Of a DNA stretch of 64,000 nucleotides, positions 272 through 64,000 are shown in pieces. The notes beneath the pieces are model-generated. The model worked only from the letters and a program-made list of their open reading frames with translations. It had not been told where the DNA came from and did not search any database. Position 1 is the first letter of the stretch, and each line of letters opens with the position of its first letter. The stretch spans positions 33,472-97,471 of the forward strand of contig CAZYKP010000021.1 of the NCBI GenBank assembly GCA_964648025.1, read 5' to 3'. This DNA comes from an uncultured Pirellulales bacterium. Its GTDB lineage: Bacteria > Planctomycetota > Planctomycetia > Pirellulales > Pb10988. A program made the position numbers and the translations under genes.

Positions 272-2563
272 GTGTCCCCAGCAACGGACAAATTGCTGCA
301 GATTCTCGAATCCGGTGGCAAATCGGCAGACTTTGCAGTTTCCGGCAGTTTCTCGGTCGTCCTTCCTGGGTTGGATGTGAAGGGAGTGGGACCGGTCGGC
401 TTGCCGGTCAACCCCTCAGTTGCGCGTGAGCTGATCGAACACGCTGACCAAGCCCCTTATGGGCAAGGCGAGCAAACGATCGTCGATACCAAAGTGCGGC
501 GAGTTTGGCAGATCGATCCTCAGGAAATCAAGATCGGCAATCCCGATTGGGATCTGCAAATGGCGGCCCTGGTTGCCACCGTTGCTCATGAGTTGGGGAT
601 TATGAGGGAAGTCACCTATGATTTCTATAAGTTGCTCGTCTACGAGAAAGGCTGTTTCTTCAAGCCGCATCGTGACACTGAGAAACAACAGGGCATGTTT
701 GCCACTTTGGTGGTCTGTCTACCCAGCAAGCACCGGGGTGGCAAGCTAATTGTTCGTCATGATGGGAAATCGCAGCAATTCGATCTGAGTGAGCCCGAGG
801 AACAGTATCGCATCCAGTACGTTGCCTTCTACGCTGATTGCGAACACGAGATTCAGCGTGTCACCAGCGGGTACCGAGTATGCTTGATCTACAACTTATC
901 GTTAATCGACTCGCCTGCTCAGCCAACAGCGCCGCATTACGCGGATGGGGTCAGCCAACTCGTAGATATTCTCCCTGAGGTTCTCCATGACCCCCTATCT
1001 CCGCGTGACAAATTGGTGATTCCGCTTGAGCACCAGTATTCCGAGGCCGGGCTCTGCTTTGCTGGCCTCAAGGGGGCCGACCGAGTGCATGCGGAGATGT
1101 TGACCCAAGCTGCCGGTCAGTTGGACTACGAAGTCTGTTTGGCCCTGGTTGATGGAAGACAGTCGGGAGGCCTGGACGATGCCACTCCAGGCTACGACGG
1201 TTGGGATTACCAGGGCAACGACGAAGATGCGATTATGGATGAGGTGTACGACGAAGAATGGAGCCTGAGTCACTGGTCGGACCAGATCGGAGTTCGGCCG
1301 GACTTGGGCCGGTTGAGCCTCTTTCCCGAGGATCTTCCCTACCCGGAGGGATTTGACGCGTTGCCCATGCAGCAGACGGTTTTTGCATACACTGGCAACG
1401 AAGGTGTTTCCATGAACCGATGGTACCAGCAAGGTGCATTGGTCGTTTGGCAACCGCAGGCACGCTTCTCGATACTCGCCCGGGAAGGCCAGAAAACGGC
1501 CCTGCCGGCCTTGATGGAACTGATCAAGCAGGAGAAACGTCCTGCCAGGTACAGCGTCTGCAAGGAGTTCGCTGCCAAGATCATCGATTTCTGGAGAGGT
1601 GTGAATCAGCGAAGTCGCTGGGCAGAGCGAGGAGGCTCTCGTCAGATGTTGCAATGCCTGACACAACTTGCCGACCTGCCCTTAGGCTCCCGCTTTGTCC
1701 GAGAGGTGTTGGTCCAGGACTGTAGCGGTGGCGAGGGTCCAGCGCTGCGGAAGCTTTGTGTGCGTCTGGGCTGGGAGGCCATGGCTGAGGTGCTTTCCTT
1801 CTTCGTCAACACGCAGGGGCCAGAGAATAAGCAGGCAGAGCCCGTCCACTTGGTTTCGATTTACCAAGGCCTTTGCTCAGCGGCTGGCGAGATGACTGCC
1901 GAGCGTCGACGGGTGTGCACGTCTTTGGCCTCGGATGTGTTGAAGATCCTGCGGCAATGGGACCAACCTTCAGAGAAACTCCCCTATGCGCAGGCGAACA
2001 AACCGCGGGAGGGAGTCGTCGAAGGTTTGTTTCACGCGTTCGCGGGCATCGATCAGCCCACCCTGTTGGAGCAGTTTCTCCGCGATGCGGTCAACGATCC
2101 CAAACGCTACAGTCTCCACGAGGTGTTGATTCCCGCTTCGCTGCGGATCGATCCCAAAAGCGCCCACAACCAGAAACTCAAAGCCTGCGGAAAAACGCTC
2201 ATCAATCACTGCATCGCGCAGCTCGAGGAACGAACCGCTCAACCAGTGAAGTTCCCCTCGGATTGGAGCCGAGAAGCCAACTTGCGGTGCAACTGCGCCG
2301 ATTGCCAAGAACTCGCAGAGTTTCTTCGCGACCCCAGAGAGTGCGTTTACCGGTTCTCCGCCGCGGCCTATCGACGAGGGCATCTCAGCCACCAGATCTT
2401 GATGGGACACCTCGACGTTGATGAGCAGACCGAACGTCGGGGTTCCCCTCACACCCTGGTGCTGACCAAAAACCGGGCTTCTTACCAGCTGGAGAAGACT
2501 CAGTTTGAAAAAAAAGTGCGGTTGTTGAGGGAACTTCGCCGGAAGCTGAAAACACTGCGGTGA
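272..2563 (+). CDS. 2OG-Fe(II) oxygenase domain protein (prolyl-4-hydroxylase-like N-terminal ~220 aa) fused to a ~540-aa uncharacterised region
   Basis: 763-aa ORF with GTG start. HxD...H...R signature: FFKPHRDTE (nt ~659-685) then YADCEHEIQRVTSGYRVCLIYNL. The remainder has no motif I recognise apart from a CNCADC cysteine cluster near the C-terminus. Confidence 0.75.
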   Translation: MSPATDKLLQILESGGKSADFAVSGSFSVVLPGLDVKGVGPVGLPVNPSVARELIEHADQAPYGQGEQTIVDTKVRRVWQIDPQEIKIGNPDWDLQMAALVATVAHELGIMREVTYDFYKLLVYEKGCFFKPHRDTEKQQGMFATLVVCLPSKHRGGKLIVRHDGKSQQFDLSEPEEQYRIQYVAFYADCEHEIQRVTSGYRVCLIYNLSLIDSPAQPTAPHYADGVSQLVDILPEVLHDPLSPRDKLVIPLEHQYSEAGLCFAGLKGADRVHAEMLTQAAGQLDYEVCLALVDGRQSGGLDDATPGYDGWDYQGNDEDAIMDEVYDEEWSLSHWSDQIGVRPDLGRLSLFPEDLPYPEGFDALPMQQTVFAYTGNEGVSMNRWYQQGALVVWQPQARFSILAREGQKTALPALMELIKQEKRPARYSVCKEFAAKIIDFWRGVNQRSRWAERGGSRQMLQCLTQLADLPLGSRFVREVLVQDCSGGEGPALRKLCVRLGWEAMAEVLSFFVNTQGPENKQAEPVHLVSIYQGLCSAAGEMTAERRRVCTSLASDVLKILRQWDQPSEKLPYAQANKPREGVVEGLFHAFAGIDQPTLLEQFLRDAVNDPKRYSLHEVLIPASLRIDPKSAHNQKLKACGKTLINHCIAQLEERTAQPVKFPSDWSREANLRCNCADCQELAEFLRDPRECVYRFSAAAYRRGHLSHQILMGHLDVDEQTERRGSPHTLVLTKNRASYQLEKTQFEKKVRLLRELRRKLKTLR

Positions 2564-2586
2564 TCTCCGAAAAGAAGTCGATTGAT

Positions 2587-2734
2587 GACTGCTGCCTTCG
2601 GAAAAGTCTTGCTCGGCCAAAACACGCCAGCCGCCGGAACGGCCAGTGATCTGGCAGCTGTTGATCTGCCAGCTGTTGATCTGCCAGCCTCTCCGCTGTG
2701 CCGGACGAGACAGGATTTCCCTCAAACTCAGTAG
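2587..2734 (-). repeat. Family A palindromic interspersed element, copy A1
   Basis: Reverse complement aligns by eye with 3531-3705, 4827-4943 and 55934-56051. Begins ~24 nt after the stop of CDS 272-2563. Carries an internal 3 x 15-bp tandem (gatctgccagctgtt, 2648-2692). Confidence 0.85.
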
Positions 2735-2752
2735 CGGATCATCGAGGTGAGT

Positions 2753-2902
2753 CTACTGGCCTTCGGAGAAGTTTTCGACCCAGGGCTTTCCGTCTGCCCT
2801 TGTTTGTGATGACCTCAACGGGGCAGCCTGAGGCACCACAGCAAGCCCGGATTGCCGGACCAAAGGTGCCCGCTTCGTCGAAGACCTTTCAGGGAACCAG
2901 TG
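2753..2902 (+). repeat. Family B palindromic interspersed element, copy B1
   Basis: Aligns by eye over ~150 bp with 11749-11897 and 20466-20615. Termini are ctactg...cagt(a/g). Central hairpin is ctgcccttg...caagggggcag. Confidence 0.85.
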
Positions 2903-3530
2903 ATTATCAATCCCACCCAAAAAGGCAGAAGAACAAGCCAACTGACCCACTCGGCAGATCCTCATCGGCCAAACATAGGGCAGCGAACTGTCTTTCAGGG
3001 CTGGGATCATCCACCGCAGTGAAGCTTCTTGGTGTCTTGGCCAAGAGGCCTCCGAAATCTCCCATCAGGTCATCAAGGACCGCACTGCCGAGTTGCAAGA
3101 AGTGCTTTCTTTTCGGTCAGTCTCTGAGAGTACGGTGAGCTTACAACCCTGGAGAACGATCTGACGCGGACTTCGATGGTGATGGATGTGGCCCTCTGGA
3201 CCAAAGCAACCTGCCCTTCCCTTCTGGCCGACCTCTCCCTTCGGCACATCAAGTCGCTTCGGAGCATTTCGCCTTGTTTGCCGATTTCGTCTTCTCGGCA
3301 ATCTGAGATGCATCAACTCTCGCCTTTGCGAAGGCAGCTGTTTCAGTAAGAACGCTACCGCCATATAAGTAAATCTCGTGCTCAGTGGCTTGTTGATGGA
3401 GGCTCGGCAGACGGTGCGTTGAGAACCGAAATCCACCGGAAGGCTTCACTACGCGGAGACTGAGCGACGGAAACTTCATCTATTCTTCACCACGGACGGC
3501 TTTTGTCGCCGCTCATCGCTAGACATTCTT

Positions 3531-3705
3531 CTACTGAGGTTGAGGAAAATCTTGGCTCCTGCGGTCCAGCGGAACGGCTGGCAGATCAACAGCTGCCAGA
3601 TCAACAGCTGGCAGATCAACAGCTAGATCAACAGCTGGAAGATCACTGGTCGTTACGGCGGCTCGCGTGTTTTGGACGAGCAAGAAACTTACGAACGCAG
3701 CGGTC
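3531..3705 (+). repeat. Family A element, copy A2 (longest)
   Basis: ctactgaggttgaggaaaatcttggctc ... ttttggacgagcaagaaactt. The internal 15-bp unit (ctggcagatcaacag) is present ~4.5 times (3578-3645). Confidence 0.85.
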
Positions 3706-3826
3706 GGGTCTGTCGCTGCGGCAGAAAGGTGCCCCTTGAGGGAAACGTCTCAATAGGATTTACTGGTAGCTTGTTCAGCGGACCAATGCTTTGGTGCACC
3801 ACACGGGGACACTACGGAGCGGAAAC

Positions 3827-4801
3827 ATGCAACGTCGAGGCTTTACGCTGGTCGAACTATTGGTTGTCATTACCATCATCGGCATTCTGATGTCACTGCT
3901 GCTTCCTGCAGTGCAGTCCATCCGCGCGGCGGCGAGGCGAATTCAATGTGCCAACAATCTGGCGAACCTCGGGCTGGCCGTCCACAACTTCCTGGCGACG
4001 AATAAAGAGGTCCTGCCTGCAGGATTGACTCAGGAGAACATCAACGGCACCTACCAGGGGACGACGTTCTTTGTGCATCTCTTGCCGTATATTGAGCAAC
4101 AGAATCTCTACGACCTGTGGGATTTTGAGGACCTCCGCCAGAATGCCGCCACCCCGCAGTCCCCTGCGGCCATACCGTTGCCGCTGCTGCTTTGCCCCTC
4201 CGATCAGTACGACGAGCCGGTCAACCAATTCACCTCCAGTCCCGGCAACTCGGGCTTGAATTTCCCCGGCTACTATGCCATTACCAGCTACGCCGGCAAT
4301 CATGGGACTCGGAACTACTACCCCAACCACGGTCAGGCTGACGGGCTGTTCTTCACCACCGGTTCCGCCTCAGCCCCGGATCGAAACCAAAAGCGGGTCC
4401 GCCTGGCTGCCATTCGCGACGGGACCAGCAACACGATCTTGCTTGGCGAGAAATACAACTACGACCCAATCTTCAACACCATCAGCTCCAATCGACGCAG
4501 TGGGCTGCTGATTCACGAATGGGGTCTGTGGGGTTGGTGCGGGGGCTTCAAGGGCACCGGGCATGTCACCCGCAGCAGTTTCCAGCCCATCAACTCACAG
4601 GTCCCCCAGTCGTGTGAGGGCGAAAGCGGCTCATACGCCTGTCAGGACAACCGCCTGATGGCCTGGGGTAGCGGACACCCAGGCGGTGCTGTGTTCGTCT
4701 TCGCCGACCGCTCCACCCGGTTCATCAACGAAAGCGTGTCTTCCATCACCCTGCAAGCCTGGAGCACACGGGCAGGTAAGGAGGTCGTCAGTGAACAGTA
4801 A
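3827..4801 (+). CDS. DUF1559-type protein with prepilin-type N-terminal cleavage/methylation motif
   Basis: ATG at 3827, in frame within ORF 3791-4801, gives MQRRGFTLVELLVVITIIGILMSLLLPAVQ. C-terminal SGHPGGAVFVFADRSTRFI resembles the H-X9-DG motif typical of this planctomycete family. Confidence 0.9.
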   Translation: MQRRGFTLVELLVVITIIGILMSLLLPAVQSIRAAARRIQCANNLANLGLAVHNFLATNKEVLPAGLTQENINGTYQGTTFFVHLLPYIEQQNLYDLWDFEDLRQNAATPQSPAAIPLPLLLCPSDQYDEPVNQFTSSPGNSGLNFPGYYAITSYAGNHGTRNYYPNHGQADGLFFTTGSASAPDRNQKRVRLAAIRDGTSNTILLGEKYNYDPIFNTISSNRRSGLLIHEWGLWGWCGGFKGTGHVTRSSFQPINSQVPQSCEGESGSYACQDNRLMAWGSGHPGGAVFVFADRSTRFINESVSSITLQAWSTRAGKEVVSEQ

Positions 4802-4814
4802 AACGCTCCCATCG

Positions 4815-5345
4815 ATGGGGACTTGCCTACTGAGGTTGAAGAAATTCTGGACTCGCCCGGCACAGCGGAGAGGCGGCCAAATCACTGGTCGTTCCGGCGT
4901 CTCGCGTGCTCTGGCCGAGCAAGATTTTTCCTCAACAGCAGTCGTTGTCTCACTGCTGGCCCTGCTGGCCGGCTGTGGCGAGACTCCCCCGCAGTTCGGG
5001 GAGGTCGAAGGTGTGCTGTACGTGCGGGGTCAGCCGCAGCCGAACATGACGATCCGTTTTATGCCGGATCCGGCCAAGGGAAATGATGTGGCAGCAAACG
5101 CTAGTGGAACGACAGACGCACAAGGCCGTTATCAGCTCCAAAGCACCTTCAAAGGAAAGGATTTTCAAGGGGCCGCCGTGGGCTGGCATAAGGTGTTAGT
5201 CGAGGATCCCCGATTGTCTGCGTTGCCACAAGGACAGGCTCGGCCACCAGAAATCGTCCCCAGAACTTACGGGAACCCAGCCACCACCAAGCTCAGCAAA
5301 GAGGTCAAGCCGGGCCAGCAGACGATCGACCTGAAAATCGATTGA
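4815..5345 (+). CDS. Small lipoprotein partner of the DUF1559 gene (carboxypeptidase-regulatory-like fold likely); start uncertain
   Basis: Lipobox VVVSLLALLAGCGE, then a beta-rich body (EVEGVLYVRGQP...DAQGRYQL). Every in-frame start upstream of the lipobox (ATG 4815, TTG 4836) lies before or inside repeat A3. Confidence 0.6.
   Translation: MGTCLLRLKKFWTRPAQRRGGQITGRSGVSRALAEQDFSSTAVVVSLLALLAGCGETPPQFGEVEGVLYVRGQPQPNMTIRFMPDPAKGNDVAANASGTTDAQGRYQLQSTFKGKDFQGAAVGWHKVLVEDPRLSALPQGQARPPEIVPRTYGNPATTKLSKEVKPGQQTIDLKID
4827..4943 (+). repeat. Family A element, copy A3 (single internal unit)
   Basis: ctactgaggttgaagaaattctggactcgcccggcacagcgg...ggccgagcaagatttttcctcaacagcagtc. Lies between the DUF1559 stop and the lipobox of the next gene. 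Confidence 0.85.
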
Positions 5346-6873: not shown

Positions 6874-7737
6874 TCAACCTTCTTGAGCGATGCCATACCT
6901 CTTGGCGAGGAATTCCACCACCTGAGCGAGCTGAGCGTCGGTCAGCGACCCGTTGTAGATTCCCAGCTCAGCCAGATCCCCCGCAAAGAATAACTCTTTC
7001 CAGGCGTGCCGGCCGATGAGCTTCCGCGAGGTGATTGCTACCGGAGCGAAGGCTCGGCTCTGCGTGCTCAACTTCCCGTTGATCCACAATTGGGCAGTTT
7101 GTTGGCTGTAGCTGTATCGGTAGGCGATCACTGCGAGGTGTTCTGCGCCCAGTGGCTGGGTTGCATCAACACGGCCGGTCTCGACGGGCGTCTCTCCCAC
7201 GAACCCAGGAAATGCCAGGGCGATGACAAGGGTCGCCTGGAACTCTCCCTCACGGAGCGGCTCACCGATTTGAATGACGCCGGGCTGGAGGGTGCCGGCA
7301 AGCTGCCTACTGGGCGGGCCATCGTAGCTGACGATTTGCCCTCCCCATCTCCGTTGGGGATTCAGGCTGGCCTTGGAATAGGACAACACGCGGATGACCG
7401 TCTGATCATCGGTGGTCTCAAGCTGGGTGGTGACCAAGAAGTCGGAGTCGCCGTCGAACCGCACCGCCGGTTGTCCTCCGATGGCGTTTTGCACCAGCAC
7501 AGGCCGAGCGGTCTGCTCGGGCTGCAGGGCGTCTTCTGCCGATTGGTTTTTCTCGGTGAGCCGACCAAACGACAGCGTGCGCGGTTGCGGTAGTAACCCA
7601 GAATACAGAATCGGGCGATCCCCAAAGCCCAACCGGAGAAGATTTTGAGCTGTCGTACTCGCCGAACTTCTCGGCAACAACGCGAGCGACTTCCTGCACA
7701 ATATCTTCAGCGGTGTGGAAGTCGCTTGTGTTTGCAC
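6874..7737 (-). CDS. LamG/concanavalin-like domain protein, probably the C-terminal remnant of an anti-sigma (FecR-type) protein
   Basis: 287-aa ORF with GTG start. Contains QPAVRFDGDSDFLV and ends FAGDLAELGIYNGSLTDAQLAQVVEFLAKRYG, which is typical of LamG jelly-rolls. No signal peptide, TM or FecR part. Confidence 0.6.
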   Translation of the reverse strand: MQTQATSTPLKILCRKSLALLPRSSASTTAQNLLRLGFGDRPILYSGLLPQPRTLSFGRLTEKNQSAEDALQPEQTARPVLVQNAIGGQPAVRFDGDSDFLVTTQLETTDDQTVIRVLSYSKASLNPQRRWGGQIVSYDGPPSRQLAGTLQPGVIQIGEPLREGEFQATLVIALAFPGFVGETPVETGRVDATQPLGAEHLAVIAYRYSYSQQTAQLWINGKLSTQSRAFAPVAITSRKLIGRHAWKELFFAGDLAELGIYNGSLTDAQLAQVVEFLAKRYGIAQEG

Positions 7738-7858
7738 CGACGTAGGCGGCGATGGCCGGTTGCGCCCGTATCCACAGACCGGCTAATGCGGCAAAACGAT
7801 CGCTGGTCAGCGGCTTCCCGGCAGGTTCTCCTTCTTCCCAGGGTGGGTCATGCGACAT
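7649..7858 (-). pseudogene. ECF sigma-70 region-2 fragment (about 70 aa only)
   Basis: ATG at 7858 gives MSHDPPWEEGEPAGKPLTSDRFAALAGLWIRAQPAIAAYVGANTSDFHTAEDIVQEVARVVAEKFGEYDS, after which the reading becomes Arg/Ala-rich nonsense. Regions 3-4 are absent. It overlaps the 5' end of the LamG ORF in another frame. Confidence 0.5.
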
Positions 7859-8241
7859 GGCCATCAGGCTCCAGACTACAAGGTGCAAAGCGGAAGCCTC
7901 GATCATTGTCTGATCTATTGTGGGTTCCGGATGACAAGACCAGAGCACGCTAGGGCGAACCAAGGCGTGGGGGAGACAGGACCGTGTCGAATTGCCACAA
8001 GGGCTTTGCAGTGACCTCTGCGAGTTCAACATTGACAACCTGTGGCCGGGAACACGGTCATCACCCAAGGGGCAGCCGTGATCGCACCTCAGCATGCCGT
8101 CGGCAAGGCACCAGCCCTTGAACTTGGCAGAACGGTCCATCAACCGATCTCCGGCGTATTGATATCAATGTGTCTAAGAGATGAAAGACCGGCGGGCTGA
8201 TCCCTCAAGCCGCCTCGAGGGAGCGTTCCGAGCGTCTGTCC

Positions 8242-8358
8242 GACTGTTGTGGAGGAAAAATCTTGCCGGTCCGAACTGCGGGAACCGCCGGAAGCATCAG
8301 TGATCTGCCAACCTTTGCGTTGTGCGGGACGAACCAGGAGTTTCCTCAACTTCAGTAA
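8242..8358 (-). repeat. Family A element, copy A4 (more diverged)
   Basis: Reverse complement reads cttttactgaagttgaggaaactcctggttcgtcccgcacaacgc...ggcaagatttttcctccacaacagtc. Confidence 0.75.
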
Positions 8359-8491
8359 AAGGTGGGCCAATCGCTGTTTGGAAACACCCAGCGGCAACGG
8401 GCTGGGTGATCAATCCACCGGCATCCCTGATCAAGGAGTTGCACTCTCCCCTGGGCCTTAGTTAAATTGCCAGAACTTTGTTCCATGTCTC

Positions 8492-11267: not shown

Positions 11268-11748
11268 CGTGGTCCTCGAGAATGACAGGTTTAACCTTTG
11301 CACTTAGTCAGCTGAGCCCCTTGTTCAGGGAATCCGCTGACTGGAAAAGCCCGTTTGTCGGTAGGAACGATTGCTGGTGATTCCTTCTGCAGCAATTGTT
11401 GGGTCAGTCACTTCGGGTAAGGGATGGGGGTGGGCAACTCAAGATGGAGATGAGCTTTCTTTCCTTAGCGTTTGAGCTGATGCGATCCATACGTCTGTGA
11501 TTGTGAAAGCTCTTGCTCGTCTTGCGTGTTCTGCTTGTTGAGCGACGAAGTCATTCGGTGGGCTGCTGGCTACTTTGTGGACTGAGAGTCGCTTCAGTAT
11601 TTTGTTTCCAGGAGCAAGAAGCTTCCGATCGGTGAGTTAACAAAGGTTGAAGACAATCATCCGTTAACAGTGATGGATGTGTGTCATCGAAGGAGCCTCC
11701 CAGCCAAATGGCGGTAAGGCTTGCAAGGTGTTTGGGCGAAGTTCAGCC

Positions 11749-11897
11749 CTACTGATCTTCGGAGAAGTTTCCGATCCAGGGCTTTCCGTCTGCCCTTGTT
11801 TGTGATGACCTCAAGGGGGCAGCCTGAGGCACCACCGGAAGCCCGGATTGCCGAACGAAACGCCCTGCTTCGTCGAAGACTTTTCAGGGAATCAGTA
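11749..11897 (+). repeat. Family B element, copy B2
   Basis: ctactgatcttcggagaagtttccgatccagggctttccgtctgcccttgtttgtgatgacctcaagggggcagcctgaggcacc...cgaagacttttcagggaatcagta. Confidence 0.85.
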
Positions 11898-13775: not shown

Positions 13776-14497
13776 AGGGTAGGAACCGAGATTGTTCTGA
13801 GCTCCGAACTAAGGTTCGGAATTTCGACAGGAAATCCGTTCTTGGGATGATGTCTCGCCGGACCGATGGAGCATGCTTGGCAACGGGAGGGAGCTGTTGT
13901 GGGTCGGCTTCAAGAACCTGACAGAGCGCCAACACCCAAACCGGCAAGTCAGAGTGTTCCACACTGGCAGTCAGAGCCAACAATCGAAAGCAAAGCAGAT
14001 CCGCCCGATGGTTTCTCGGGGGTCGGTGTTTGGATGTGGTTTTAGGGGGCAAAAGAACCGGACACCAAGGGAAAGTTACCCTAACGGAACGTCCTCTCAA
14101 TAGCAAGGAAATTCGTTGTTTCTTGGGGAAAGGCCGTTGACAGGCTTCAGAGTGCTGGCGATTGGCTTCCATCTTCCAGTCATTGGCGATGAACATCCCT
14201 GGCCTGAGCCAGACAACTGCCGACAGTTTTTTGGACCAGTGGGATGCCTACGCTGAGTCAGACAAGTTTCCGACCCAGGGCAACCAACGGAAGCCCGAAT
14301 CGCCGAGCGTTGATCCGTGGTACCCAGATCACGTTCTGATCGCGACACCTTGCTGGGTCGCGTGCTTCAGCCTGACCGTCGCAGTCATGACGGGCTTGAT
14401 TTGACACCTGCGACACGAGAAGCATAGGTTTTGTGAGGGATTGCGACCGCTTTGGGCGATCTGCAGGCCATTCCCCCAAAAGTCGGGTAACTGACCG

Positions 14498-14598
14498 GCT
14501 GTCCGAAAAGTGTCCCGGCACAACGAGGATTCGTTGCATCAAGACTCGCTAGCCACCAACCGTTGTGCCTCCGCCACTATGTCGGACAGACTTTGAGA
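14498..14598 (-). repeat. Family D element, copy D1
   Basis: Reverse complement matches 57496-57596 with about 6 mismatches in 101 nt (manual alignment). Confidence 0.9.
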
Positions 14599-14690
14599 CA
14601 CAAGACCTGCCGAGGTCCGAGGGCTTACCTTGAGCCCCGCTTGGTTGTCACCTTCTTCATCGCCGTTGGAACCAAAGACGACACAGCACA

Positions 14691-16980: not shown

Positions 16981-18097
16981 TTCGCACCCCCCGTTGAACA
17001 CAAGTACCCCGCAGTGTCTGGTTGTTCCAAGCAAATCGATCCGCAAATCGGCCTCGACATTGCCACGCGACATCCCCTTCCCGCCGGTGAAAACGTCGGT
17101 TTTGCCGCCGTCATCCAGGCAGAACACTCGACCCCTGCTTGCACAAGGTGATGCCCGAAATGCACCACCGCTCGGCGGTCGTTTGTTGATAGACGCTTAT
17201 CCCATCTTCCGCGTTGATGCAGTGGACCAGACCACTGCATCGGTCGAGAAGGGAGGGATGGCCTTGGCCCTAGGATCGGGGAGGCCATTTGGAGGTCACA
17301 GCGTGGGATCTTCCAGAGAACCGATTCGTTCGAGTGAGCGTCTTGGTTAGGCGTGATATTCCGGAGCCACCCGGTTGGACGGCAAAGAGGAAGCCGCCAT
17401 CATCAGATCCGCCGCGGTTGTGAGACTCGGTGCTGGCGAACAAACGATCCCCAACAGTGAGCGGTGTTGCCGAACTGCGGGCTTGATTCATGTCCAGTTG
17501 CCACAGAAGGTGGCCAATCTGCGGATCGTAGCATCGACAGATCTGACCGACGGCGACCAGCTCATCTCGTTGACTGTTGTGCCAGGTGATCGGCGTGCTG
17601 GACTGCCACGGCTCATCTCGCTTGACCCGCCAGATCTCCTCCCCAGTCTCGGCGACCAGGGCCACTACGGATTCCCTGAAAAGTCTTCGACGAAGCGGGG
17701 CGTTTCGTCCGGCACTTCGGGCTTCCGCCCGTCGCCCTCGGTCGAAGACTGATCTGAGGCTCAGTAACAACGATTGCTCTTGATTGTCGATCTGCAGAAA
17801 AAGCTTCCCTTCAAAGTGTACCGATGAATTCGAGGTGCCCCAGCCGGCCCGCATCAGATAAGTCCCGAAGTCCTTCTGCCACAGTTTCTGGTACCGACTC
17901 TCTTCCGAGGAAAGTGGCTTCTGGCCTGAGGCGACCACCGCCGGTAATCGATTGCTTTCTCGCTGGGTCAATCGCAGCGGTGGGCGTTTGATGAGCTTGA
18001 TGGTGTCCCGCGAAAAGGTACCTGGCCCCTCCAAGCTCGAGGTTTTCCTGAGGTCTCCGACCGAGTGCGGCAGCTCAAACAGCCAAGTCTGTCTCAA
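16936..18097 (-). pseudogene. Decayed PQQ-like beta-propeller gene (frameshifted, repeat-interrupted)
   Basis: Propeller-blade-like strings occur in three different frames: VALVAETGEEIWRV, CYDPQIGHLLWQLD, LVHCINAEDGISVYQQ, VFCLDDGGKTDVF. No signal peptide. A family B copy is embedded at 17665-17767. Confidence 0.6.
17665..17767 (-). repeat. Family B element, copy B4 (internally deleted), inside the PQQ pseudogene
   Basis: ctacggattccctgaaaagtcttcgacgaagcggggcgtttcg...gccctcggtcgaagactgatctgaggctcagtaa. Both arms are present and the central ~50-bp hairpin is missing. It is translated in the ORF as RSAGRNAPLRRRLFRES. Confidence 0.75.
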
Positions 18098-20465: not shown

Positions 20466-20615
20466 CTTACTGACCTTAGGAGAAGTGTTCGACCCAGGGC
20501 TTTCCGTCTGCCCTTGTTTGAGATGACCTCAAGGGGGCAGCCTGAGGCACCACCGCAAGCCCGGATTGCCGAACGAAACGCCCCGCTTCGTCGAAGACTT
20601 TTCAGGGAATCAGTA
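20466..20615 (+). repeat. Family B element, copy B3
   Basis: cttactgaccttaggagaagtgttcgacccagggctttccgtctgcccttgtttgagatgacctcaagggggcagcc...cgaagacttttcagggaatcagta. Confidence 0.85.
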
Positions 20616-20845
20616 GTACCAATGCAAGCTCCATCATCAGCAGAAGCGGGTCGGGACGTATCGCCTGATGTGTCAGCCCTTGCATCTGATGCCATAGTGA
20701 TGTGCCGCAGGAGGCCATCGAAGAGCCTTCCCGTCCCGAGGGAGCCACCAACCGCAGTGAAGGGTTGTCGAGCTGGTTGGCCTGCCTAAGATGCCGGAGT
20801 TTACCCAGCTCTTTGGGGGGCCTTAAGAGTTTGATGGGCAGTTGG

Positions 20846-20961
20846 TAGTGCCTTGTTTCCTATGATTTTGGCAGTCGGTTGATTTTGGCAGTCGGTTGGA
20901 CGTGAATCCCCCGATTCCAGGAGAACCAACTGCCAAATCAGAAGGAAACCGACCACTAGGT
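20846..20961 (+). repeat. Family C palindromic element, copy C1 (2 internal 17-bp units)
   Basis: tagtgccttgtttcctatgattttggcagtcggtt(gattttggcagtcggtt)ggacgtgaatcccccgattcc...ccaactgccaaatcagaaggaaaccgaccactaggt. Ends 11 nt before the ATG at 20972. Confidence 0.85.
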
Positions 20962-28877: not shown

Positions 28878-28976
28878 TTGTGCCTTGTTTCCTGGGATTC
28901 TGGCAGTCGGTTCGACGCGGATCCTCCGATTCAACGAGAACCCAATTGGCCAATCAGAAGGCAACGGACCACTCGA
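28878..28976 (+). repeat. Family C element, copy C2 (diverged, one internal unit)
   Basis: ttgtgccttgtttcctgggattctggcagtcggttcgacgcggatcctccgattc...ttggccaatcagaaggcaacggaccactcgac. Confidence 0.75.
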
Positions 28977-31051: not shown

Positions 31052-31153
31052 CCCCCGAGAACTTGTGTCCCCCGAGAACTTGTGTCCCCCGAGAACTTGT
31101 GTCCCCCGAGAACTTGTGTCCCTCGAGCAATTGTGTCCCTCGAGAACTTGTGT
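31052..31153. repeat. 6 x 17-bp tandem array in the trpG leader
   Basis: cccccgagaacttgtgt x4, then ccctcgagcaattgtgt and ccctcgagaacttgtgt. Begins 42 nt upstream of the trpG ATG. Confidence 0.9.
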
Positions 31154-31862
31154 CCAGCCCGGTGTTGTTGCCTTGGGTCTTTCGGGTCCCCACTGAGTGA
31201 GTCTCGCCGGCAATCTGGGACAGTCTCGGGAGGACTAATCCGCCACAAGCCGCCTGCCTTCCTCCGCCGACGAACCAGACCACATTGTGCCACCACCAAC
31301 CCGTTGACACTAGCGGAGCGGTCCCAAACCGCCGTGAAGACAGTCAGCTTCAAGAACCTCACCGATGATCAACAGGTTCAACCAAGTCAAGGGGAATTGA
31401 TCTGCATAAGCTCGCGGGGCGTTGGTATCTGCAGTGAATTTCCAGAAAGCAAGTTGACTGGGAAGGCCGTAGTAAGGCATTCACAAATCCTTAAAATGAT
31501 GCTCCTCTCTCTGAGCACCAATGCCCCAATTCCTTGACGTGCCCGTTGCCAAACTCAATCACACGAACCCCTGACTCCTGAGGGTGAACCAACAATTTCG
31601 CCTCATCGGAGCAAATGTTCTGCCAAAGCGGTTCTATTTCCAGCAATTCCAAGACAACTGTATATTCCACCGAGTTGGTCTGAGCGAGGGGCGAGTCTAC
31701 AATCCCTTAGAGAAATTTTTCACAAACCCTCATGTCATCTTCACACAGCGACGATCGGATCTGGCGGCTGATGGAAGGGTCAAAACCGGTTAGGTGAGGA
31801 TTTTCAACCATCTGAGCCGATCGAGGCGGAAGTCGAAGGACAAGCGTGAGGAGGACTTACTG

Positions 31863-33279: not shown

Positions 33280-33430
33280 GAGGCGTCCTGATCTGCTGAG
33301 GCGTCCTGATCTGCTGAGGCGTCCTGATCTGCTGAGGCGTTCTGATCTGCTGAGTCCTACCGATCCGCTGAGTTCGGGCGTGTTGCTCAGTTCGGGTGTT
33401 CTGCTGAGTTCGGGTGTTCTGCTGAGTTCG
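33280..33430. repeat. Composite 18-bp-period tandem array (~8 units, two unit types)
   Basis: gaggcgtcctgatctgct x4, one degenerate unit, then (g/c)agttcgggtgttctgct x3. Spans the 3' end of the NHL gene (its C-terminus SAEHPNSAEHPN) and the intergenic region. Confidence 0.9.
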
Positions 33431-38740: not shown

Positions 38741-40186
38741 ATGCCTACCAAGACAGTGCTCTCGCTCGTGGGAATTTTCGTTGTGCTGGGTGCCGTCGGG
38801 GTGGTCGCCCTGGTTCTGCCAGGGAGCCGTCCCGGTTCGCTGAGGATCGGCGGGGATGCACCTCAAGCTATCGTTGTCGGTGGCCCACAGTATGATTTTG
38901 GCTTACTCGAGGTCGGTCAGACAGGAAGCCATGAGTTTGTCATCCGCAATGAAGGTCCAGGGATTCTCAAGCTGGAGGCTGGCAAACCAAGCTGCAAGTG
39001 CACCAGCTTTACGATTGCCGAGACGGAACTCCAGCCAGGTGAGCAGACCATGGCTGAGGTCGAATGGTCGGGCGATTCATCAATGGTTGCCTTCCGCCAG
39101 ACAGCCCCAGTCAAGACGAACGACCCCAAGAACCCTTCCATTGAGCTGGTGATCACCGGAGAGATCCTGCAACTGGTCGGCGTTGAACCGTCACCTCTGA
39201 CTTTGTCGAGAATCTCTTCCAGCAAAGAGCATCAATCCGAATTTCTGGTTTACAGTCCCGCCGTGGAGCAATTCGAGATCACCTCTATTGAGCCCCAGAA
39301 TCCAGAAACCGCCAAGCAGTTCGAGATCTCCTGGACGCCGGCTGCACAAGACGATTATCAGCCCCTGGGCGGAAAGAGCGGATATCTCTGTACCTTGACT
39401 GTCAAACCTGGTCTGCCATTAGGGCAGTTCAACCAAAAATTCACGATTAAGACCACTGTCCCGCTGAAGCGGAACTCCTTAACACCTGAGCTCAAGGAGA
39501 CTGAGCTCAAGGAGACTGAGCTCAAGGAGACTGAGCTCAAGGAGACTGAGCCCAAGGAGACTGAGCCCAAGGAGACTGAGCTCAAGGACACCCAACAGGA
39601 GGCCTCCCAAGAGGGAGGATCCGCAGAGAAGTCGGGAGACGCTGATGATCCGGGGAACTCAGCAAAGGACGCCGCTGAGCAGCCCAGGCCAGAAACACCC
39701 AGATCAACCGAACCTGGGCCGGAAGAAGCTGGCCCCAAAAAGGTGGATCAGGGTGTGCATCGGGAGAAGGGCGATCAGGTGGCCTCAGTCGAGTGGGTTG
39801 TCCGAGGGGTTGTTGAGGGCGATCTGAGTGTTCTCGGCAACGGGTACGATTCGACGCGTGGACGGCTGACAATCGGACAGGTTCCACGTTTCCAAGGGGC
39901 CAAGAGGCAGCTGCGTCTGTTAGCTCGTGGTCCCCATCGAGATATCACGATCAAGGGCGTCACCACAAACAAACCTGGCATTTTGCTTGCCAAAGTGGGC
40001 CCCAAGAGAACTCTCACCTCCAAGCTTGTCACATTCCCGATTGATATTGAGATCGCCGCGGATGCCCCGGAGATGAACCAAATGGGCACCAAAGCCGGAG
40101 AAATCGGGGTTGTGACCCTCCAGACCGATCACCCGGTCACTCCTCAAGTCCGCATCTTGGTACGTTACGCTGTCTTAGAACAGTGA
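38741..40186 (+). CDS. DUF1573-domain protein with repeat linker
   Basis: TM anchor, then YDFGLLEVGQTGSHEFVIRNEGPGILKLEAGKPSCKCTSF, which is the DUF1573 pattern. An acidic ELKET repeat linker is followed by a second beta-rich domain. Confidence 0.8.
   Translation: MPTKTVLSLVGIFVVLGAVGVVALVLPGSRPGSLRIGGDAPQAIVVGGPQYDFGLLEVGQTGSHEFVIRNEGPGILKLEAGKPSCKCTSFTIAETELQPGEQTMAEVEWSGDSSMVAFRQTAPVKTNDPKNPSIELVITGEILQLVGVEPSPLTLSRISSSKEHQSEFLVYSPAVEQFEITSIEPQNPETAKQFEISWTPAAQDDYQPLGGKSGYLCTLTVKPGLPLGQFNQKFTIKTTVPLKRNSLTPELKETELKETELKETELKETEPKETEPKETELKDTQQEASQEGGSAEKSGDADDPGNSAKDAAEQPRPETPRSTEPGPEEAGPKKVDQGVHREKGDQVASVEWVVRGVVEGDLSVLGNGYDSTRGRLTIGQVPRFQGAKRQLRLLARGPHRDITIKGVTTNKPGILLAKVGPKRTLTSKLVTFPIDIEIAADAPEMNQMGTKAGEIGVVTLQTDHPVTPQVRILVRYAVLEQ
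39488..39592. repeat. In-frame 7 x 15-bp tandem array (ELKET/EPKET)
   Basis: gag(c/t)(t/c)caaggagact x7 inside CDS 38741-40186. Confidence 0.9.
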
Positions 40187-43039: not shown

Positions 43040-43172
43040 TAGTGCCTTGTTTGCTAGGATTTTGGCAGTCGGTTGATTTGGGCAGTCGGTTGATTTTGGC
43101 AGTCGGTGGGACGTGAATCCCCCGATTCCACGAGAACCAGCTGCCAAATCAGAAGGAAACCGACCACTAGGT
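43040..43172 (+). repeat. Family C element, copy C3 (3 internal 17-bp units)
   Basis: Same arms as C1, with gatttt/gatttgggcagtcggt(t) x3. Confidence 0.85.
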
Positions 43173-45295: not shown

Positions 45296-45333
45296 TCTCG
45301 GCCTCAAGGTGGGTCCCGACTGGTCCAACTCAA

Positions 45334-45408
45334 GCTCGCGTGACTCAGGCTCGCGTGACTCAGGCTCGCGTGACTCAGGCTTGCGTGACTCAGGCTTGCG
45401 TGACTCAG
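45334..45408. repeat. 5 x 15-bp tandem array in the lysC leader
   Basis: gc(t/c)(c/t)gcgtgactcag x5. Each unit carries the palindromic heptamer tgagtca on the coding strand. Begins 39 nt upstream of the lysC ATG and is open in frame with lysC from TTG 45418. Confidence 0.9.
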
Positions 45409-45891
45409 GTTCGTGCAAGTCAAGCCGTGTCGTTCAAGCTGTGTTATTTAAGCTTGAGCAACAGGCAGGCTTGAGGTTCTTGAGAGCTTCCGACTGAGGA
45501 TCGAAGCCTTTGGGGGGCAGTGGAGTCTCTTCGGCGATCGCTTCTCGCCTTTGACCCCTGACCTGTTCTGAGCATCAAGTAACGCAGTGGCACTGGTAAG
45601 CTTTCTGGATCACCAATTCAAGGGTCAACGCCGACAACCGCTCAGGAGCTTCAGCTGGAACAAGCAACGTCCGCAACAACTGCGACTTCTCGCCGCGGTG
45701 TCTTTCAGGAAGGGGCCTGTCTGACTGTCTGACGGCCCGCTCTGTCGGCCCATTGTCAAGTCGGCCCATTGTCAAAGTGCTCGCTGGGGACTTTTTTTGA
45801 GCTTGCAGCACAACGCACTCAACCTCAGGTTTTCTGAACGGACTCTGCTTGAGGTTCTGGGGGCTTTCAGCAGCGTCGGGAGATCTTTTTG

Positions 45892-51430: not shown

Positions 51431-51577
51431 AGTGATTCCGGGAAAAGTTCTCAACGACAACATTGCGGAAGGACCGAGGGTCCGGGCTTGCGGTGGTACC
51501 GCTGGCTGCCCCCTTTGGTCATCAAAAACAAGGGCAGACTGACATCTCTGGGCCAAAAACTTGCCTGAAACTCAGTC
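51431..51577 (-). repeat. Family B element, copy B5 (diverged)
   Basis: agtgattccgggaaaagttctcaacgac...gggcttgcggtggtaccgctggctgccccctttggtcatcaaaaacaagggcagac...ctgaaactcagt. Confidence 0.7.
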
Positions 51578-55247: not shown

Positions 55248-55326
55248 AGCGCGTGATCTTGAACAGCGCGTGATCTTGGAAAGCGTGATCTTGGAAAGCG
55301 TGATCTTGGAAAGCGTGATCTTGGAA
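55248..55326. repeat. 5-unit tandem array (17/15-bp units)
   Basis: agcgcgtgatcttg(a/g)a(c/a) x2, then agcgtgatcttggaa x3. Lies between the yqgE stop and the next ATG at 55409. Confidence 0.9.
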
Positions 55327-55408
55327 AGCATGGATCCGATGGAAACTCTTGGACACTGCCGTTGAGACTGTTTCAGGGCTTGAGACTGCCGAACTGAAGG
55401 AGCGACTG

Positions 55409-55879: not shown

Positions 55880-55933
55880 AACACTCGGCCGCTGGCGCCA
55901 CAAAGGCACCTTGCACCTTGAACCTTGCTTCGC

Positions 55934-56051
55934 CTGCGGAGGTTGCGGAAAATCTTGGCTTGTCCGGCCCAGCGGAAAGGCTGCCAATTCACCGGTCATT
56001 CCAACTGCTGGCGTGTTTTGGCCGAGCAAGAATCTTCCGATCGCAGCAGTC
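55934..56051 (+). repeat. Family A element, copy A5
   Basis: cctgcggaggttgcggaaaatcttggcttgtccggcccagcggaaaggctgcc...ttttggccgagcaagaatcttccgatcgcagcagtc. Confidence 0.8.
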
Positions 56052-56102
56052 ACACGTCTCGCCTCACTTGCCTCGCCCCACTCGACTTTGGGAAGAAAAC
56101 GG

Positions 56103-56411
56103 ATGTGGCTAAGCTTTGCGGAGCTCGAAGACCTAAAAAGCCAGTACACCGGCAAACGTGTTGAAGTCAACGCTCAACGTCCCGAGCTCGCTCGTTTCCA
56201 AGGACAGAGCGGCACAATCAAAACCATCAACATGAACGGCAGGGCCTTAGTAGAATTCGCTGACTACCTCAATAACCCCGGATGGTATGACATCCGCCTC
56301 AGCGATCTGACGATCCTGGAGACTCAAGGGGAATCCTCGTTCAGCAACAGCCCCTCTGGTGAGGTGCCCTCAAATCAGATCTCAGAGATCCAGCGAGAGG
56401 ATTCCAATTAA
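56103..56411 (+). CDS. Small hypothetical protein
   Basis: In-frame ATG at 56103 just downstream of repeat A5. The 102-aa sequence looks protein-like (MWLSFAELEDLKSQYTGKRVEVNAQRPELARFQGQSGTIKTINMNGRALVEFADY...). Confidence 0.5.
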   Translation: MWLSFAELEDLKSQYTGKRVEVNAQRPELARFQGQSGTIKTINMNGRALVEFADYLNNPGWYDIRLSDLTILETQGESSFSNSPSGEVPSNQISEIQREDSN

Positions 56412-57313: not shown

Positions 57314-57495
57314 GCTGTTTCTCCTGCATGAGATGGTTGATGATGAGATTTCTGTGAACTACCCCTCTCTTTCAACGCTTGGGTGCAGGGTGTTTTTCTG
57401 GATTGCTCGTACCTCGACTGTTCCAGATCGTGGCAGAGGTCCAACCTGGAGTGCCCTCAACAAATCCAGGCAAGAACATCTGGGTGAGCACAAGG

Positions 57496-57596
57496 TCTCA
57501 GAGTCTGTCCGAAATAGTGGCGGAGGCACAACGGCTGGTGGCTCACGAGTCTTGATGCAACGAATCCTCGTTGTGCCGGGACACTTTTCGGACAGT
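57496..57596 (+). repeat. Family D element, copy D2
   Basis: tctcagagtctgtccgaaatagtggcggaggcacaacggctggtggctcacgagtcttgatgcaacgaatcctcgttgtgccgggacacttttcggacagt. It is the inverted counterpart of 14498-14598. Confidence 0.9.
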
Positions 57597-57602
57597 CACT
57601 CA

Positions 57603-57670
57603 GAGGTTGAGGGTTCTCAGAGGTTGAGGGTTCTCAGTGCTTGAGGGTTCTCAGTGCTTGAGGGTTCTCA
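57603..57670. repeat. 4 x 17-bp tandem array abutting D2
   Basis: gaggttgagggttctca x2, then gtgcttgagggttctca x2. Confidence 0.9.
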
Positions 57671-58053
57671 GGGGGCAGGAGGTTTTGGGACAAGGGCTAC
57701 ATCTGGGCCTTTCCAACGATCTGAGTTTGTCGGCAGTGTTCGTCCCAGGTTGGATTCCTCGTGAAGCCCGAAGAGCGTACTGCCTCTGGACTCAATCCAG
57801 CGGACTCGTTGGTTTTGAGGGGCTCAGATTTGTCAAACTGCAAGACCGGAGTTGCAAGACCAGAACTGCTGAAACGTATCCTTGGGGCCTGACCCTGGTG
57901 AGGTGGCCATCAAGAGGCTAGACTCCCCTCGGCATAGGCTGCTACTTCTGCAAGGTCGTTCCGACTCCACTGCTCTATTCTGGGAACGGTGGGAGGCCCA
58001 TCTCTCAGGGAGCGTTCCTACCTTCCCAACTGGCTCTCGACACTGGTTGCTTT

Positions 58054-62591: not shown

Positions 62592-62671
62592 CTTAAAGAC
62601 TGTGACGCTTAAAGACTGTGACGCTTAAAGACTGTGACGCTTGAAGACCGTGACGCTTGAAGACTGTGATC
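62592..62671. repeat. 5 x 16-bp tandem array
   Basis: cttaaagactgtgacg x3, then cttgaagaccgtgacg and cttgaagactgtgatc. Lies in the convergent intergenic region between 62511 and 62731. Confidence 0.9.
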
Positions 62672-62730: not shown

Positions 62731-63600
62731 TTAGAGGTACTCGTCCTCGAGCTGATCAAGGGTCTCTGGGTCGAACTGATCATCAGGTTGAGGTCGCTTT
62801 GGCGGTGCGGCGAAGAGCATGTTGTACAACTCATGATGCCGCTCTGGCCGGATGCAATAGAAGTTGTGTTTGCCCTCTCGCCGAGAATCCACCAACTGCA
62901 GACCTTTGAGCAATTTGAGATGGTGGCTGACCGCAGGTTGGCTCTGGTGGCATAAGTCACAGAGGGCGCGAACATGCAACTCGCCGTTCTGGAACAAGTA
63001 GAACAAAATCCGCAAGCGTGTTCGATCTGACAGCACCTGAAAGATGTTCCTCAGATGCTCAACGGTCTCATCAAGGTCCGCCTGCGATAGCAACGGGAAA
63101 CCTTCACCGAGCGTCGCCGACCCGACTGGCCCCTCACCGGCCACCCCGGGGCCGGCTCCTGATTGACTGGAAACGTCATCAGCTGACTTTTGGCCTGTTG
63201 GCCTTTCCAATGCAACGGCAAGCTCGGCAGCAGCAAGTCGGTCCTGAGGGGCGATCGTCGGCAAAGGAGTGCTCTGGTTTGCTGGTCGGTCAGCTGACTT
63301 GTCGGCCGCTCGGTGGGAAGCCGGTTGTTCCTCAGCCGGTTGTTCCTCAGCCGGTTCTTGACGAGCGGGCGAGATGAGGTTGGCAGGAGCAACTCCATCG
63401 CCAGGGGGGCAGTTTGGGTTTGGTTCACTCGAAGGAGAGCGAACGCCTTGCGGAATTGTTGGGTCGGATCGAGGAGATGTTGATGTGTTTTCGATTCGGC
63501 GGCTCTGCGGATGAAGTGACCCGCGGTTCTTATCCATGATGACGTCGGTCTTCACCAAAACACCTCTTCGAGGCTCTTCCAAAAGTGTCCTGGACCCCAA
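62731..63600 (-). CDS. ArsR/SmtB-family transcriptional regulator with a long low-complexity N-terminal extension
   Basis: C-terminal ~100 aa: LSDRTRLRILFYLFQNGELHVRALCDLCHQSQPAVSHHLKLLKGLQLVDSRREGKHNFY. Start is ambiguous (TTG 63600 or ATG 63537). In-frame 15-bp repeat (AEEQP x2) at ~63321-63350. Confidence 0.75.
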   Translation of the reverse strand: MGSRTLLEEPRRGVLVKTDVIMDKNRGSLHPQSRRIENTSTSPRSDPTIPQGVRSPSSEPNPNCPPGDGVAPANLISPARQEPAEEQPAEEQPASHRAADKSADRPANQSTPLPTIAPQDRLAAAELAVALERPTGQKSADDVSSQSGAGPGVAGEGPVGSATLGEGFPLLSQADLDETVEHLRNIFQVLSDRTRLRILFYLFQNGELHVRALCDLCHQSQPAVSHHLKLLKGLQLVDSRREGKHNFYCIRPERHHELYNMLFAAPPKRPQPDDQFDPETLDQLEDEYL

Positions 63601-63962
63601 AACGAATCTGAGGGGATCGTTGCTACGACGTGTCGGCGTGAGCTACTTCTGGAAGAGACAGTCAGTGTGGAAGATTGGGTGCTGACCCGTTCACCGACCG
63701 ACCTTCGGCAACTCATTTCACCAAGCGTTGGGTTCTTGTTTTTCGGTAAGCTCCCAACGATCACGAGGTTGGTCGTGAATGGACCGACAAGGAACCTGCC
63801 TGCTGGCCAGGCCGAACCGAGGCTGCCGGACAAGAGTGCTCAGCAGAAGACATGCAGTTCGGGAAATGTCGTTGGCTGAGGTTGGCCCCACGTCAACCTT
63901 GCCATCCAAACTACTCCACCAACAAGTGGCTGGTCAACTGTCCGCCAATCCTTCGGCGACCT

Positions 63963-64000
63963 AACTACTTGTGGGGAAAATTCTTGCTCGTCCAAAACGC
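63963..64000 (-). repeat. Family A element, copy A6, truncated by the window edge
   Basis: aactacttgtggggaaaattcttgctcgtccaaaacgc parallels the start of A1 (gactgctgccttcggaaaagtcttgctcggccaaaacacgc). Confidence 0.6.

Follow-up and report, generated by a model that had tools for sequence, protein, structure and literature searches.

The BOX elements of Streptococcus pneumoniae were reportedly described by Martin et al. in 1992 as modules in the order boxA-boxB(n)-boxC, the internal module being present in variable tandem number. Other small palindromic repeats include the Rickettsia palindromic elements (RPE), which measure about 100-150 bp, have a conserved open frame and can sit in frame inside genes (PMC10969869), and the ERIC and Correia (CREE) elements, imperfect palindromes of 100-160 bp that have terminal inverted repeats and no transposase of their own and lie mostly at transcribed intergenic sites near genes, sometimes within genes (PMC10969869, PMC2229807). 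Among planctomycetes, R. baltica and Planctomyces spp. carry REP sequences marked by the tetranucleotide GTAG, and RAYT-like genes with long inverted repeats, themselves grouped in families, on either side (PMC3733652). The present analysis concerns family A, a dispersed palindromic repeat with a 15-bp tandem core, in a stretch of 64,000 nucleotides (hereafter the window, to which all feature coordinates refer) from contig CAZYKP010000021.1 of an uncultured Pirellulales bacterium. Family A is a new family within the known class of small palindromic non-autonomous repeats; it combines RPE-like, ERIC/Correia-like and BOX-like traits, apparently belongs to none of these by sequence, and its membership of the MITEs (miniature inverted-repeat transposable elements) is incomplete. 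It probably consists of MITE-like, non-autonomous repeats that were spread in trans, with a core that is a slipping minisatellite.

Five complete copies (A1 to A5) and a sixth cut by the window end (A6) were located. The focal copy, A2, lies at 3531-3705(+) and is 175 bp long with about five core units, one of them of 12 bp. A1 (2587-2734(-), 148 bp, three units) was detected by both the profile and blastn; A3 (4827-4943(+)) is 117 bp long, equal to 39 codons without a stop, and has one unit; A4 (8242-8358(-), 117 bp, one unit) is the most diverged copy; A5 (55934-56051(+)) is 118 bp long with one unit; and A6 (63963-64000(-)) comprises the right arm only, up to the point where the window ends. 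All six had been proposed, with a manual consensus, in an earlier note made from the DNA letters, and all six were recovered by blastn, repeat-finding and nhmmer. Self-comparison of the window by blastn gave pairwise family A matches of 74-89 % identity with E values of 1e-5 to 1e-25, repeat-finding recovered these pairs too, both as direct and as inverted repeats, and the computed consensus was nearly identical to the manual one. The nhmmer matches lay at 2584-2747(-), 3516-3718(+), 4812-4951(+), 8227-8372(-), 55920-56066(+) and 63957-64000(-; E=1.7e-8), with no further match in the window below E=0.09. Because the nhmmer profile was derived from these same copies, the blastn result serves as the independent test. 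The copies are 66-85 % identical to one another over aligned columns, and the arm motif of the family occurs four times against 0.09 expected. From its CTACTG... terminus to its ...CAGCAGTC terminus the basic unit measures about 117 bp; it has imperfect inverted repeats of about 25-30 bp at its ends, and similarity between the DNA copies ends sharply just beyond these two termini. At 117-175 bp, without a transposase open reading frame (ORF) and non-coding, the copies fall below the limit of about 500 bp used for MITEs, and they are many and dispersed in one genome, to which we infer that all the contigs belong. Family A is a real, old, dispersed and apparently lineage-restricted repeat family. 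A possible degenerate copy at 11437-11527, beside the family B copy B2, was unconfirmed when the sequence was read and was dropped.

Most copies adjoin genes. A1 lies 23 nt past the stop codon of a gene for a 763-aa protein with a 2OG-Fe(II) oxygenase domain, A2 lies 121 nt 5' of the ATG of a DUF1559/N-methyl gene, A4 lies 98 nt 5' of the longest possible start of the ORF at 7418-8143(-), and A5 is placed 54 nt past a DoxX-like gene and 51 nt ahead of an ATG at 56103. The DUF1559 gene (3827-4801) has A2 on one side and A3 on the other, both in direct orientation and 1296 nt apart from start to start. Such pairs might conceivably aid the duplication of DUF1559 genes, which form a family that is greatly expanded in planctomycetes. 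The 17 nt or so to the left of A2 and A3 are also weakly alike (CATCGCTAGAC... and CATCGATGGGGAC...). A1 lies 18 nt from B1 (2753-2911), a copy of the different palindromic family B.

The left end of the element, CTACTGAGGTTGAGGAAAATCTTGGCTCG, corresponds to the reverse complement of the right end, GACTGCTGTTGAGGAAAAATCTTGCTCGG, so that terminal inverted repeats are present as in MITEs. In A2 the left repeat (3531-3559(+), CTACTGAGGTTGAGGAAAATCTTGGCTCC) pairs with the right repeat (3672-3705(+), TTGGACGAGCAAGAAACTTACGAACGCAGCGGTC), and the right repeat contains the best-conserved block of the whole family, GGMCGAGCAAGA. The consensus hairpin computed with RNAalifold has 39 pairs, with 88 % of the cells paired; sliding the partners by one to three columns lowers this to 30-54 %. 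The earlier claim that the arms are mutually reverse-complementary therefore stands as far as a palindrome is concerned, but the palindrome is imperfect: plain arm-to-arm alignment matches 36 of about 59 arm positions. Folding z-scores of single copies are modest (-0.6 to -3.2 overall, and -0.6 to -1.3 in three of the five full copies), and the palindromes are thus decaying.

At the centre of the palindrome lies the 15-bp core. Tandem Repeats Finder placed it at 2647-2688(-) in A1 (2.8 copies; unit on the + strand TGATCTGCCAGCTGT) and at 3573-3645(+) in A2 (5.1 copies of the unit AACAGCTGGCAGATC, with 9 % indels and one 12-bp unit), and A3, A4 and A5 hold one unit each; the earlier count of one unit in A3 and A5, three in A1 and about 4.5 in A2 was borne out. 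Across 27 copies, which include those described below from outside the window, unit counts were one (11 copies), two (4), three (3), four (7), five (1) and seven (1). The arrays in the window encode the unit peptides WQINS or CQINS, and those of other copies are made of variants (FPINS, CQINN, CQITS and WQINT, three times each), the four-unit copy L012 reading CGGCAGATCACYCGC. Variant units are homogeneous within one array and different between arrays, and this combination points to local expansion and turnover rather than to inheritance from master copies of different sizes. The position and period of the core are identical everywhere, and an array of at least two units was therefore probably already present in the ancestor. 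From this pattern we infer that core length varies by replication slippage. Every core unit of the window copies carries GATC and CAGCTG, and the unit variants CTGGCAG and CTGCCAG are mutually reverse-complementary, so that neighbouring units can pair; such pairing would favour slippage, but it is not the whole explanation, because the units of L012 are without CAGCTG. The idea of a CRISPR array was discarded, the 15-bp units being directly adjacent without spacers. The contig L001 from the short-read Logan assembly of run SRR6462993 starts at 3658, 13 nt past the A2 array, and the arrays or the elements probably fragment assemblies of the source organism.

The copy A3 stands inside a gene. 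It occupies the signal peptide region of a lipoprotein gene at 4815-5345(+), whose lipobox is LAGC with the cysteine at residue 54, and it follows codon 4 in frame, separating the start codon from the hydrophobic core of the signal peptide. The in-frame starts nearby are GTG at 4791, ATG at 4815 and TTG at 4836, with a farther GTG at 4686 inside the DUF1559 gene, and the publicly annotated protein (P0001) starts at 4791. Because each of these starts is either upstream of A3 or among its first 12 nt, translation has to pass through at least 36 of the 39 codons of A3 to reach the hydrophobic core, and the frame through A3 is the only one able to supply a signal peptide for the gene ending at 5345. 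The earlier note's statement that all copies are intergenic is consequently wrong for A3; its remark that the copies generate recurrent spurious peptides is right about the recurrence and wrong in calling all of them spurious, since the 39 residues of A3 are needed for the signal peptide. All ten homologues compared (30-57 % identical) have much shorter N-termini without the 39 residues, and the distance of their lipobox cysteine from the start is roughly 15-45 residues, compared with position 54 in the A3-bearing protein. One of them, 54 % identical, is syntenic, being placed downstream of a DUF1559 gene across a 79-nt spacer and having the short signal peptide VRFFCIAAISTIVAGCG. Deletion of the 117 bp of A3 restores MGTCVVSLLALLAGCG. 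Given that these homologues, the syntenic one included, are without the 39 residues, A3 is best read as an in-frame insertion in a lipoprotein signal peptide. The window sequence also occurs in short assemblies of the runs SRR6462993 and SRR6462991, and because the A3 junctions are 100 % identical in these two independent run assemblies, a binning or assembly artefact is not the explanation. The A3-encoded peptide is basic (8 K+R against 2 D+E) and belongs to the N-terminal region of the signal peptide, a part that signal peptidase II would remove; this is a plausible reason for the insertion having been tolerated.

Further copies were found through their translations. A peptide profile of the element, searched against 1.84 billion representative proteins at E<=1e-3, gave 24 matches: the window's own P0001, two chance matches to long unrelated proteins, and 21 element-bearing proteins. 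One more element-bearing protein, P0042, came from a word-index search, making 22 extra copies (P0019-P0037, P0039, P0041 and P0042) with one to seven units. They are short junk ORFs of 53-240 aa, alike only in the element peptide, and are placed on at least 15 other NCBI contigs of 10-275 kb or in the same Logan sample. The similarity between their element peptides ends just beyond LLRL... and ...EGSSR, the same boundaries as those of the DNA copies. Only L012 was seen as DNA, the others being known as peptides; it comes from another contig of the same sample, where it stands antisense between two genes for ABC transporters. Family A thus numbers at least 28 copies, all apparently from one lineage. 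No match to the family A consensus was obtained by blastn against the PLSDB plasmids.

Compared with the described families, family A behaves most like the RPE where A3 is concerned, an in-frame insertion of 117 bp and 39 codons without a stop; the resemblance is one of behaviour only. RPE belong to another phylum and family A has no Rfam match, only one of the seven family A copies known as DNA is intragenic against nearly half of the RPE, RPE insertions affect the mature protein whereas A3 sits in a signal peptide, and a variable tandem core is not described for RPE. Size, palindromy, the position near genes and the lack of a transposase are shared with ERIC and Correia elements, to neither of which family A is related by sequence; Correia elements have a TA duplication, promoters and an IHF site, whereas in family A neither TA/TA flanks nor a sigma-70-like promoter were found. 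Like BOX, family A is dispersed, hairpin-forming, non-autonomous and modular with an internal tandem module, and it clusters with another repeat family, as A1 does with B1 (compare PMC10969869). It differs in unit length (about 45 bp for boxB, 15 bp for family A), in that BOX is without long perfect terminal inverted repeats, and in sequence, where no relation exists. The MIRU and other bacterial minisatellites (variable-number tandem repeats, VNTRs) share short intergenic tandem units whose copy number differs between loci, probably by slippage, but MIRU are arrays of 40-100-bp units and do not stand at the apex of a dispersed palindrome. The GTAG REPs and the terminal repeats of RAYT/TIRYT genes come from the same phylum, occur as several families per genome and as dimers or clusters, lie in some cases at ORF N-termini (PMC3733652), and share with family A a CTAC/GTAG tetranucleotide at an outer end. 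REPs are 20-40-bp palindromes with the tag 5' of the stem-loop, whereas family A is one 117-bp palindrome with the tag reversed and at one end. Its halves do not fold alone, and an unpaired GTAG/CGTC tag 5' of a stem-loop was not found, CTAC being present at the left end only. The description of the family as MITE/REP-like in the earlier note accordingly holds for its dispersal, terminal inverted repeats, non-coding nature and variable core; a REP by definition the element is not, and two defining features of a MITE, a target-site duplication at the copies and a parent insertion sequence in the window, were not found.

The account that we favour is that copies would formerly have been spread by a transposase or recombinase supplied in trans and would then have decayed to their present identity. 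A3 would have landed in frame in the removable N-terminal part of a lipoprotein signal peptide, and the 15-bp minisatellite at the palindrome centre would expand and contract in place by replication slippage, giving one to seven units, as the local form of a genome-wide tendency toward 13-22-bp tandem arrays. Effects on neighbouring genes, such as mRNA hairpins, a weak terminator-like stem or an extended signal peptide, would be by-products and not a selected function. The adjacency of A1 and B1 was counted in favour of this account, since it resembles the clusters formed by BOX, RUP and SPRITE elements (PMC10969869). Several findings weigh against it. No target-site duplication of at least 3 bp at a consistent offset was found in six complete copies, and the flanking dinucleotides mismatch; an original duplication may have decayed, the copies being old. 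Pfam scans of about 40 ORFs found no parent insertion sequence and no transposase domain in the window, in agreement with the earlier note. The copies, at 66-85 % identity, are old and give no sign of current mobility; the insertion of A3 is read from homologues of at most 57 % identity, with no empty site at the DNA level; and five of the seven DNA copies are oriented as the next downstream gene, which would fit a leader or promoter module too, though seven copies are no proof. An exact 28-nt pattern, GCGTNNNNYGGMCGAGCAAGANNNTTNC, scanned against 596 Gb of reference genomes, metagenome contigs and viral contigs, gave only 5, 4 and 0 matches, respectively, and these nine are chance matches because their agreement with the profile is confined to the pattern itself. 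Since the pattern gave chance matches only, the source genome is not in the scanned sets; the pattern fits four of the six copies in the window, and an exact scan of this kind would miss diverged copies elsewhere. Neither the peptide profile nor the exact-pattern scans found family A copies in other lineages. A TA target duplication of the IS630/Correia type was rejected on the flanks, the left being TA and the right a conserved TC. The missing duplication weakens the classical reading of a MITE moved by a DDE transposase and keeps open a route in which an HUH tyrosine transposase (RAYT/TIRYT, IS200/IS605-like), for which no target-site duplication is expected, would have moved the same selfish element in the form of single-stranded hairpin DNA. 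The whole element folds into one long hairpin, its outer left end in A1-A3 is CTAC, the complement of the REP GTAG tag, and family B has CTAC...GTAG; these starts are what make the HUH route attractive, together with the GTAG REPs and RAYT-like genes known from Planctomycetes (PMC3733652). The tag is, however, on the wrong side: no stem-loop follows it, since on the complementary strand it stands at the 3' end; it is found at one end of family A only, the other end being CAGTC; the halves of the element are not individually palindromic as REPs are; and the Pfam scans of the window contained no RAYT or Y1 transposase. We regard movement by an HUH enzyme as unlikely, though it is the strongest of the alternatives considered.

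A different kind of explanation holds that the copies are structured cis-acting RNA, as a 5' leader, a terminator or insulator, or an mRNA-stability hairpin, kept by selection beside genes. The five copies oriented like the gene next downstream are 12-360 nt upstream of its start, folding predicts a long hairpin, and a terminator scan found in A1 and A2 a small GC stem followed by GTGTTTTGG (in A3 it found another stem, at 4907-4921). Against this, Rfam gave no match in the whole window at gathering thresholds, and none even at E<=1 in the region 2500-5000, which holds three copies. Double changes occur in only two of the 39 pairs, a value reached by 60 of 500 shuffles, the covariation term of RNAalifold is unfavourable (+1.96 kcal/mol), many substitutions break pairs, and the z-scores of three of the five full copies are modest. 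Arm mismatches of the G-U type and of the A-C type stand at 5:3, and with the two types balanced in this way neither strand is favoured. The adjoining genes are functionally unrelated, and one copy lies antisense within an ABC-transporter operon and one within a coding region. Family A shows no sign of selection for RNA pairing and is not a conserved RNA, so that the earlier suggestion of a structured RNA family is not upheld by the Rfam, covariation or wobble-pair results; a cis-acting role kept by selection is accordingly rather improbable. Less probable again is a protein-binding module adopted by the host, in which the 15-bp GATC units would be iteron-like sites or a spacer that tunes or phase-varies expression. 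GATC is present in every unit and the palindrome CAGCTG in most, the unit number ranges from one to seven between copies, and most copies are in putative promoter or leader regions. But the unit sequences differ between arrays, sites spaced 15 bp apart alternate between opposite faces of the helix, the copies have no associated regulator gene, and unrelated 13-22-bp arrays fill many other intergenic regions, which argues that expansion is not specific to this element. The last candidate, a repeated coding module in which the conserved open frame (LLRLRKILARPAQRKGWQITGRSGGSRVLAEQDFSEGSS) would encode a genuine peptide or part of a protein, is close to refuted. Of the five full window copies, four have frame 0 open, and the 15-bp unit preserves this frame (in A2 the 12-bp unit brings one stop into frame 0), 22 public predicted proteins contain the element peptide, and A3 is in frame with a real gene. 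Variable sites in the open frame are nevertheless spread evenly over the three codon positions (20/21/19), the other frames are largely open too, starts and stops are not consistent, the frame relative to the downstream gene differs between A3 and A5, and the host 'proteins' are short, low-quality ORFs with nothing in common beyond the element. Family A is non-coding.

Apart from its repeats, the window is ordinary planctomycete chromosome, with the DUF1559 gene and its prepilin-type N-methyl motif and genes for a sulfatase, NadA, aspartate kinase and a prolyl oligopeptidase. It holds at least three further dispersed palindromic families, B, C and D. Family B, about 150 bp long and 83-95 % identical, is present at 2753-2911(+), 11749-11897(+), 20468-20623(+) and 51481-51576(-), with partial copies at 17664-17727(-) and 14258-14305(+). 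Its ends are CTACTGA...TCAGTAG, and the terminal pattern TACTGA-N7-GAAAA is common to families A and B; the pattern occurs 22 times in the window against 10 expected, an excess that comes mostly from non-independent copies and is a lead only. Family C consists of two inverted copies, 14491-14599(+) and 57495-57603(-), 93 % identical and 43 kb apart, with ends ...CTGTCCGAAAAGT and ...TCGGACAGACT. The second of these abuts a 17-bp array (CTCAGAGGTTGAGGGTT, 4.3 copies, 57599-57671), the unit of which resembles the family A terminus CTGAGGTTGAGGAAAA. The palindromic copies of family D lie at 20846-20961, 28880-28973 and 43040-43172, with ends CTAGTGCC...GACCACTAG, and contain a 17-bp unit, GATTTTGGCAGTCGGTT, that is present two, one and three times, respectively; like family A, family D is built as an expandable unit inside a dispersed palindrome. 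The motif GTCTGTCC, seen beside A4 and at the ends of family C, was set aside as chance (four occurrences against 2.7 expected).

Tandem Repeats Finder identified 28 short arrays in the window, with periods of 9-22 bp (mostly 15-18), two to seven copies and unrelated units; examples are those at 31052-31155, 33280-33430, 39486-39588, 45328-45413, 55251-55329, 57599-57671, 61031-61137 and 62592-62669. Many intergenic regions in the window consist largely of one array. Arrays with a period that is not a multiple of three are intergenic or fall in over-extended ORF 5' ends, and arrays of period 15 or 18 also occur in frame inside genes. CTGAG/CTCAG was dismissed as a special array word: it is frequent throughout, with an enrichment of only 1.6-fold between genes. 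A count in the manner of SATFIND, for which an exact 10-mer had to be present at least four times at regular spacing, gave ten loci, equal to 156 per Mb, an approximate figure from one window. The part of a 2019 survey that was used gives a highest bacterial value of about 23 per Mb and a value of 4 per Mb for R. baltica (PMC6749651), and the approximate density in the window is roughly seven times that of the richest bacterium recorded there. The family A core is one instance of this apparently genome-wide array-making habit. It is a tentative and rather doubtful proposal that a lineage-specific process seeds and grows 13-22-bp arrays throughout the genome and that the loci could act as contingency switches for phase variation or the tuning of expression. 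If it were true, it would imply an unusual or dedicated replication or repair activity, with length differences between cells, and thus a large set of contingency switches in a planctomycete.

Taken alone, family A adds one lineage-specific family of palindromic repeats to a long list, and its setting, ordinary chromosomal DNA with four palindromic families and exceptionally dense short tandem arrays, is more surprising. For annotation, the element matters because it pollutes gene calls, at least 22 public 'proteins' being read-throughs of family A, and because it probably breaks short-read assemblies at its array. A3 provides a natural example of a place where such an insertion can be harmless, the part of a signal peptide that is cleaved off, and the 15-bp core, with its one to seven units, offers VNTR markers for tracking strains of an uncultured planctomycete.

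Two gene models near family A copies may need correction. The ORFs at 6874-7737(-) and 7418-8143(-), the second of which has A4 upstream of it, overlap by 320 nt in different frames; the former has a Laminin_G_3 domain and the latter no Pfam match, and the pair may be a single frameshifted or mis-assembled gene or may have over-extended starts. At 62731-63600(-), an ArsR-type helix-turn-helix (HTH) lies at residues 190-240 of a maximal ORF of 289 aa. The true extent of the ArsR-type gene is probably far less, so that roughly 500-900 nt between it and A6 would be non-coding, including a 15-bp array at 63319-63356.

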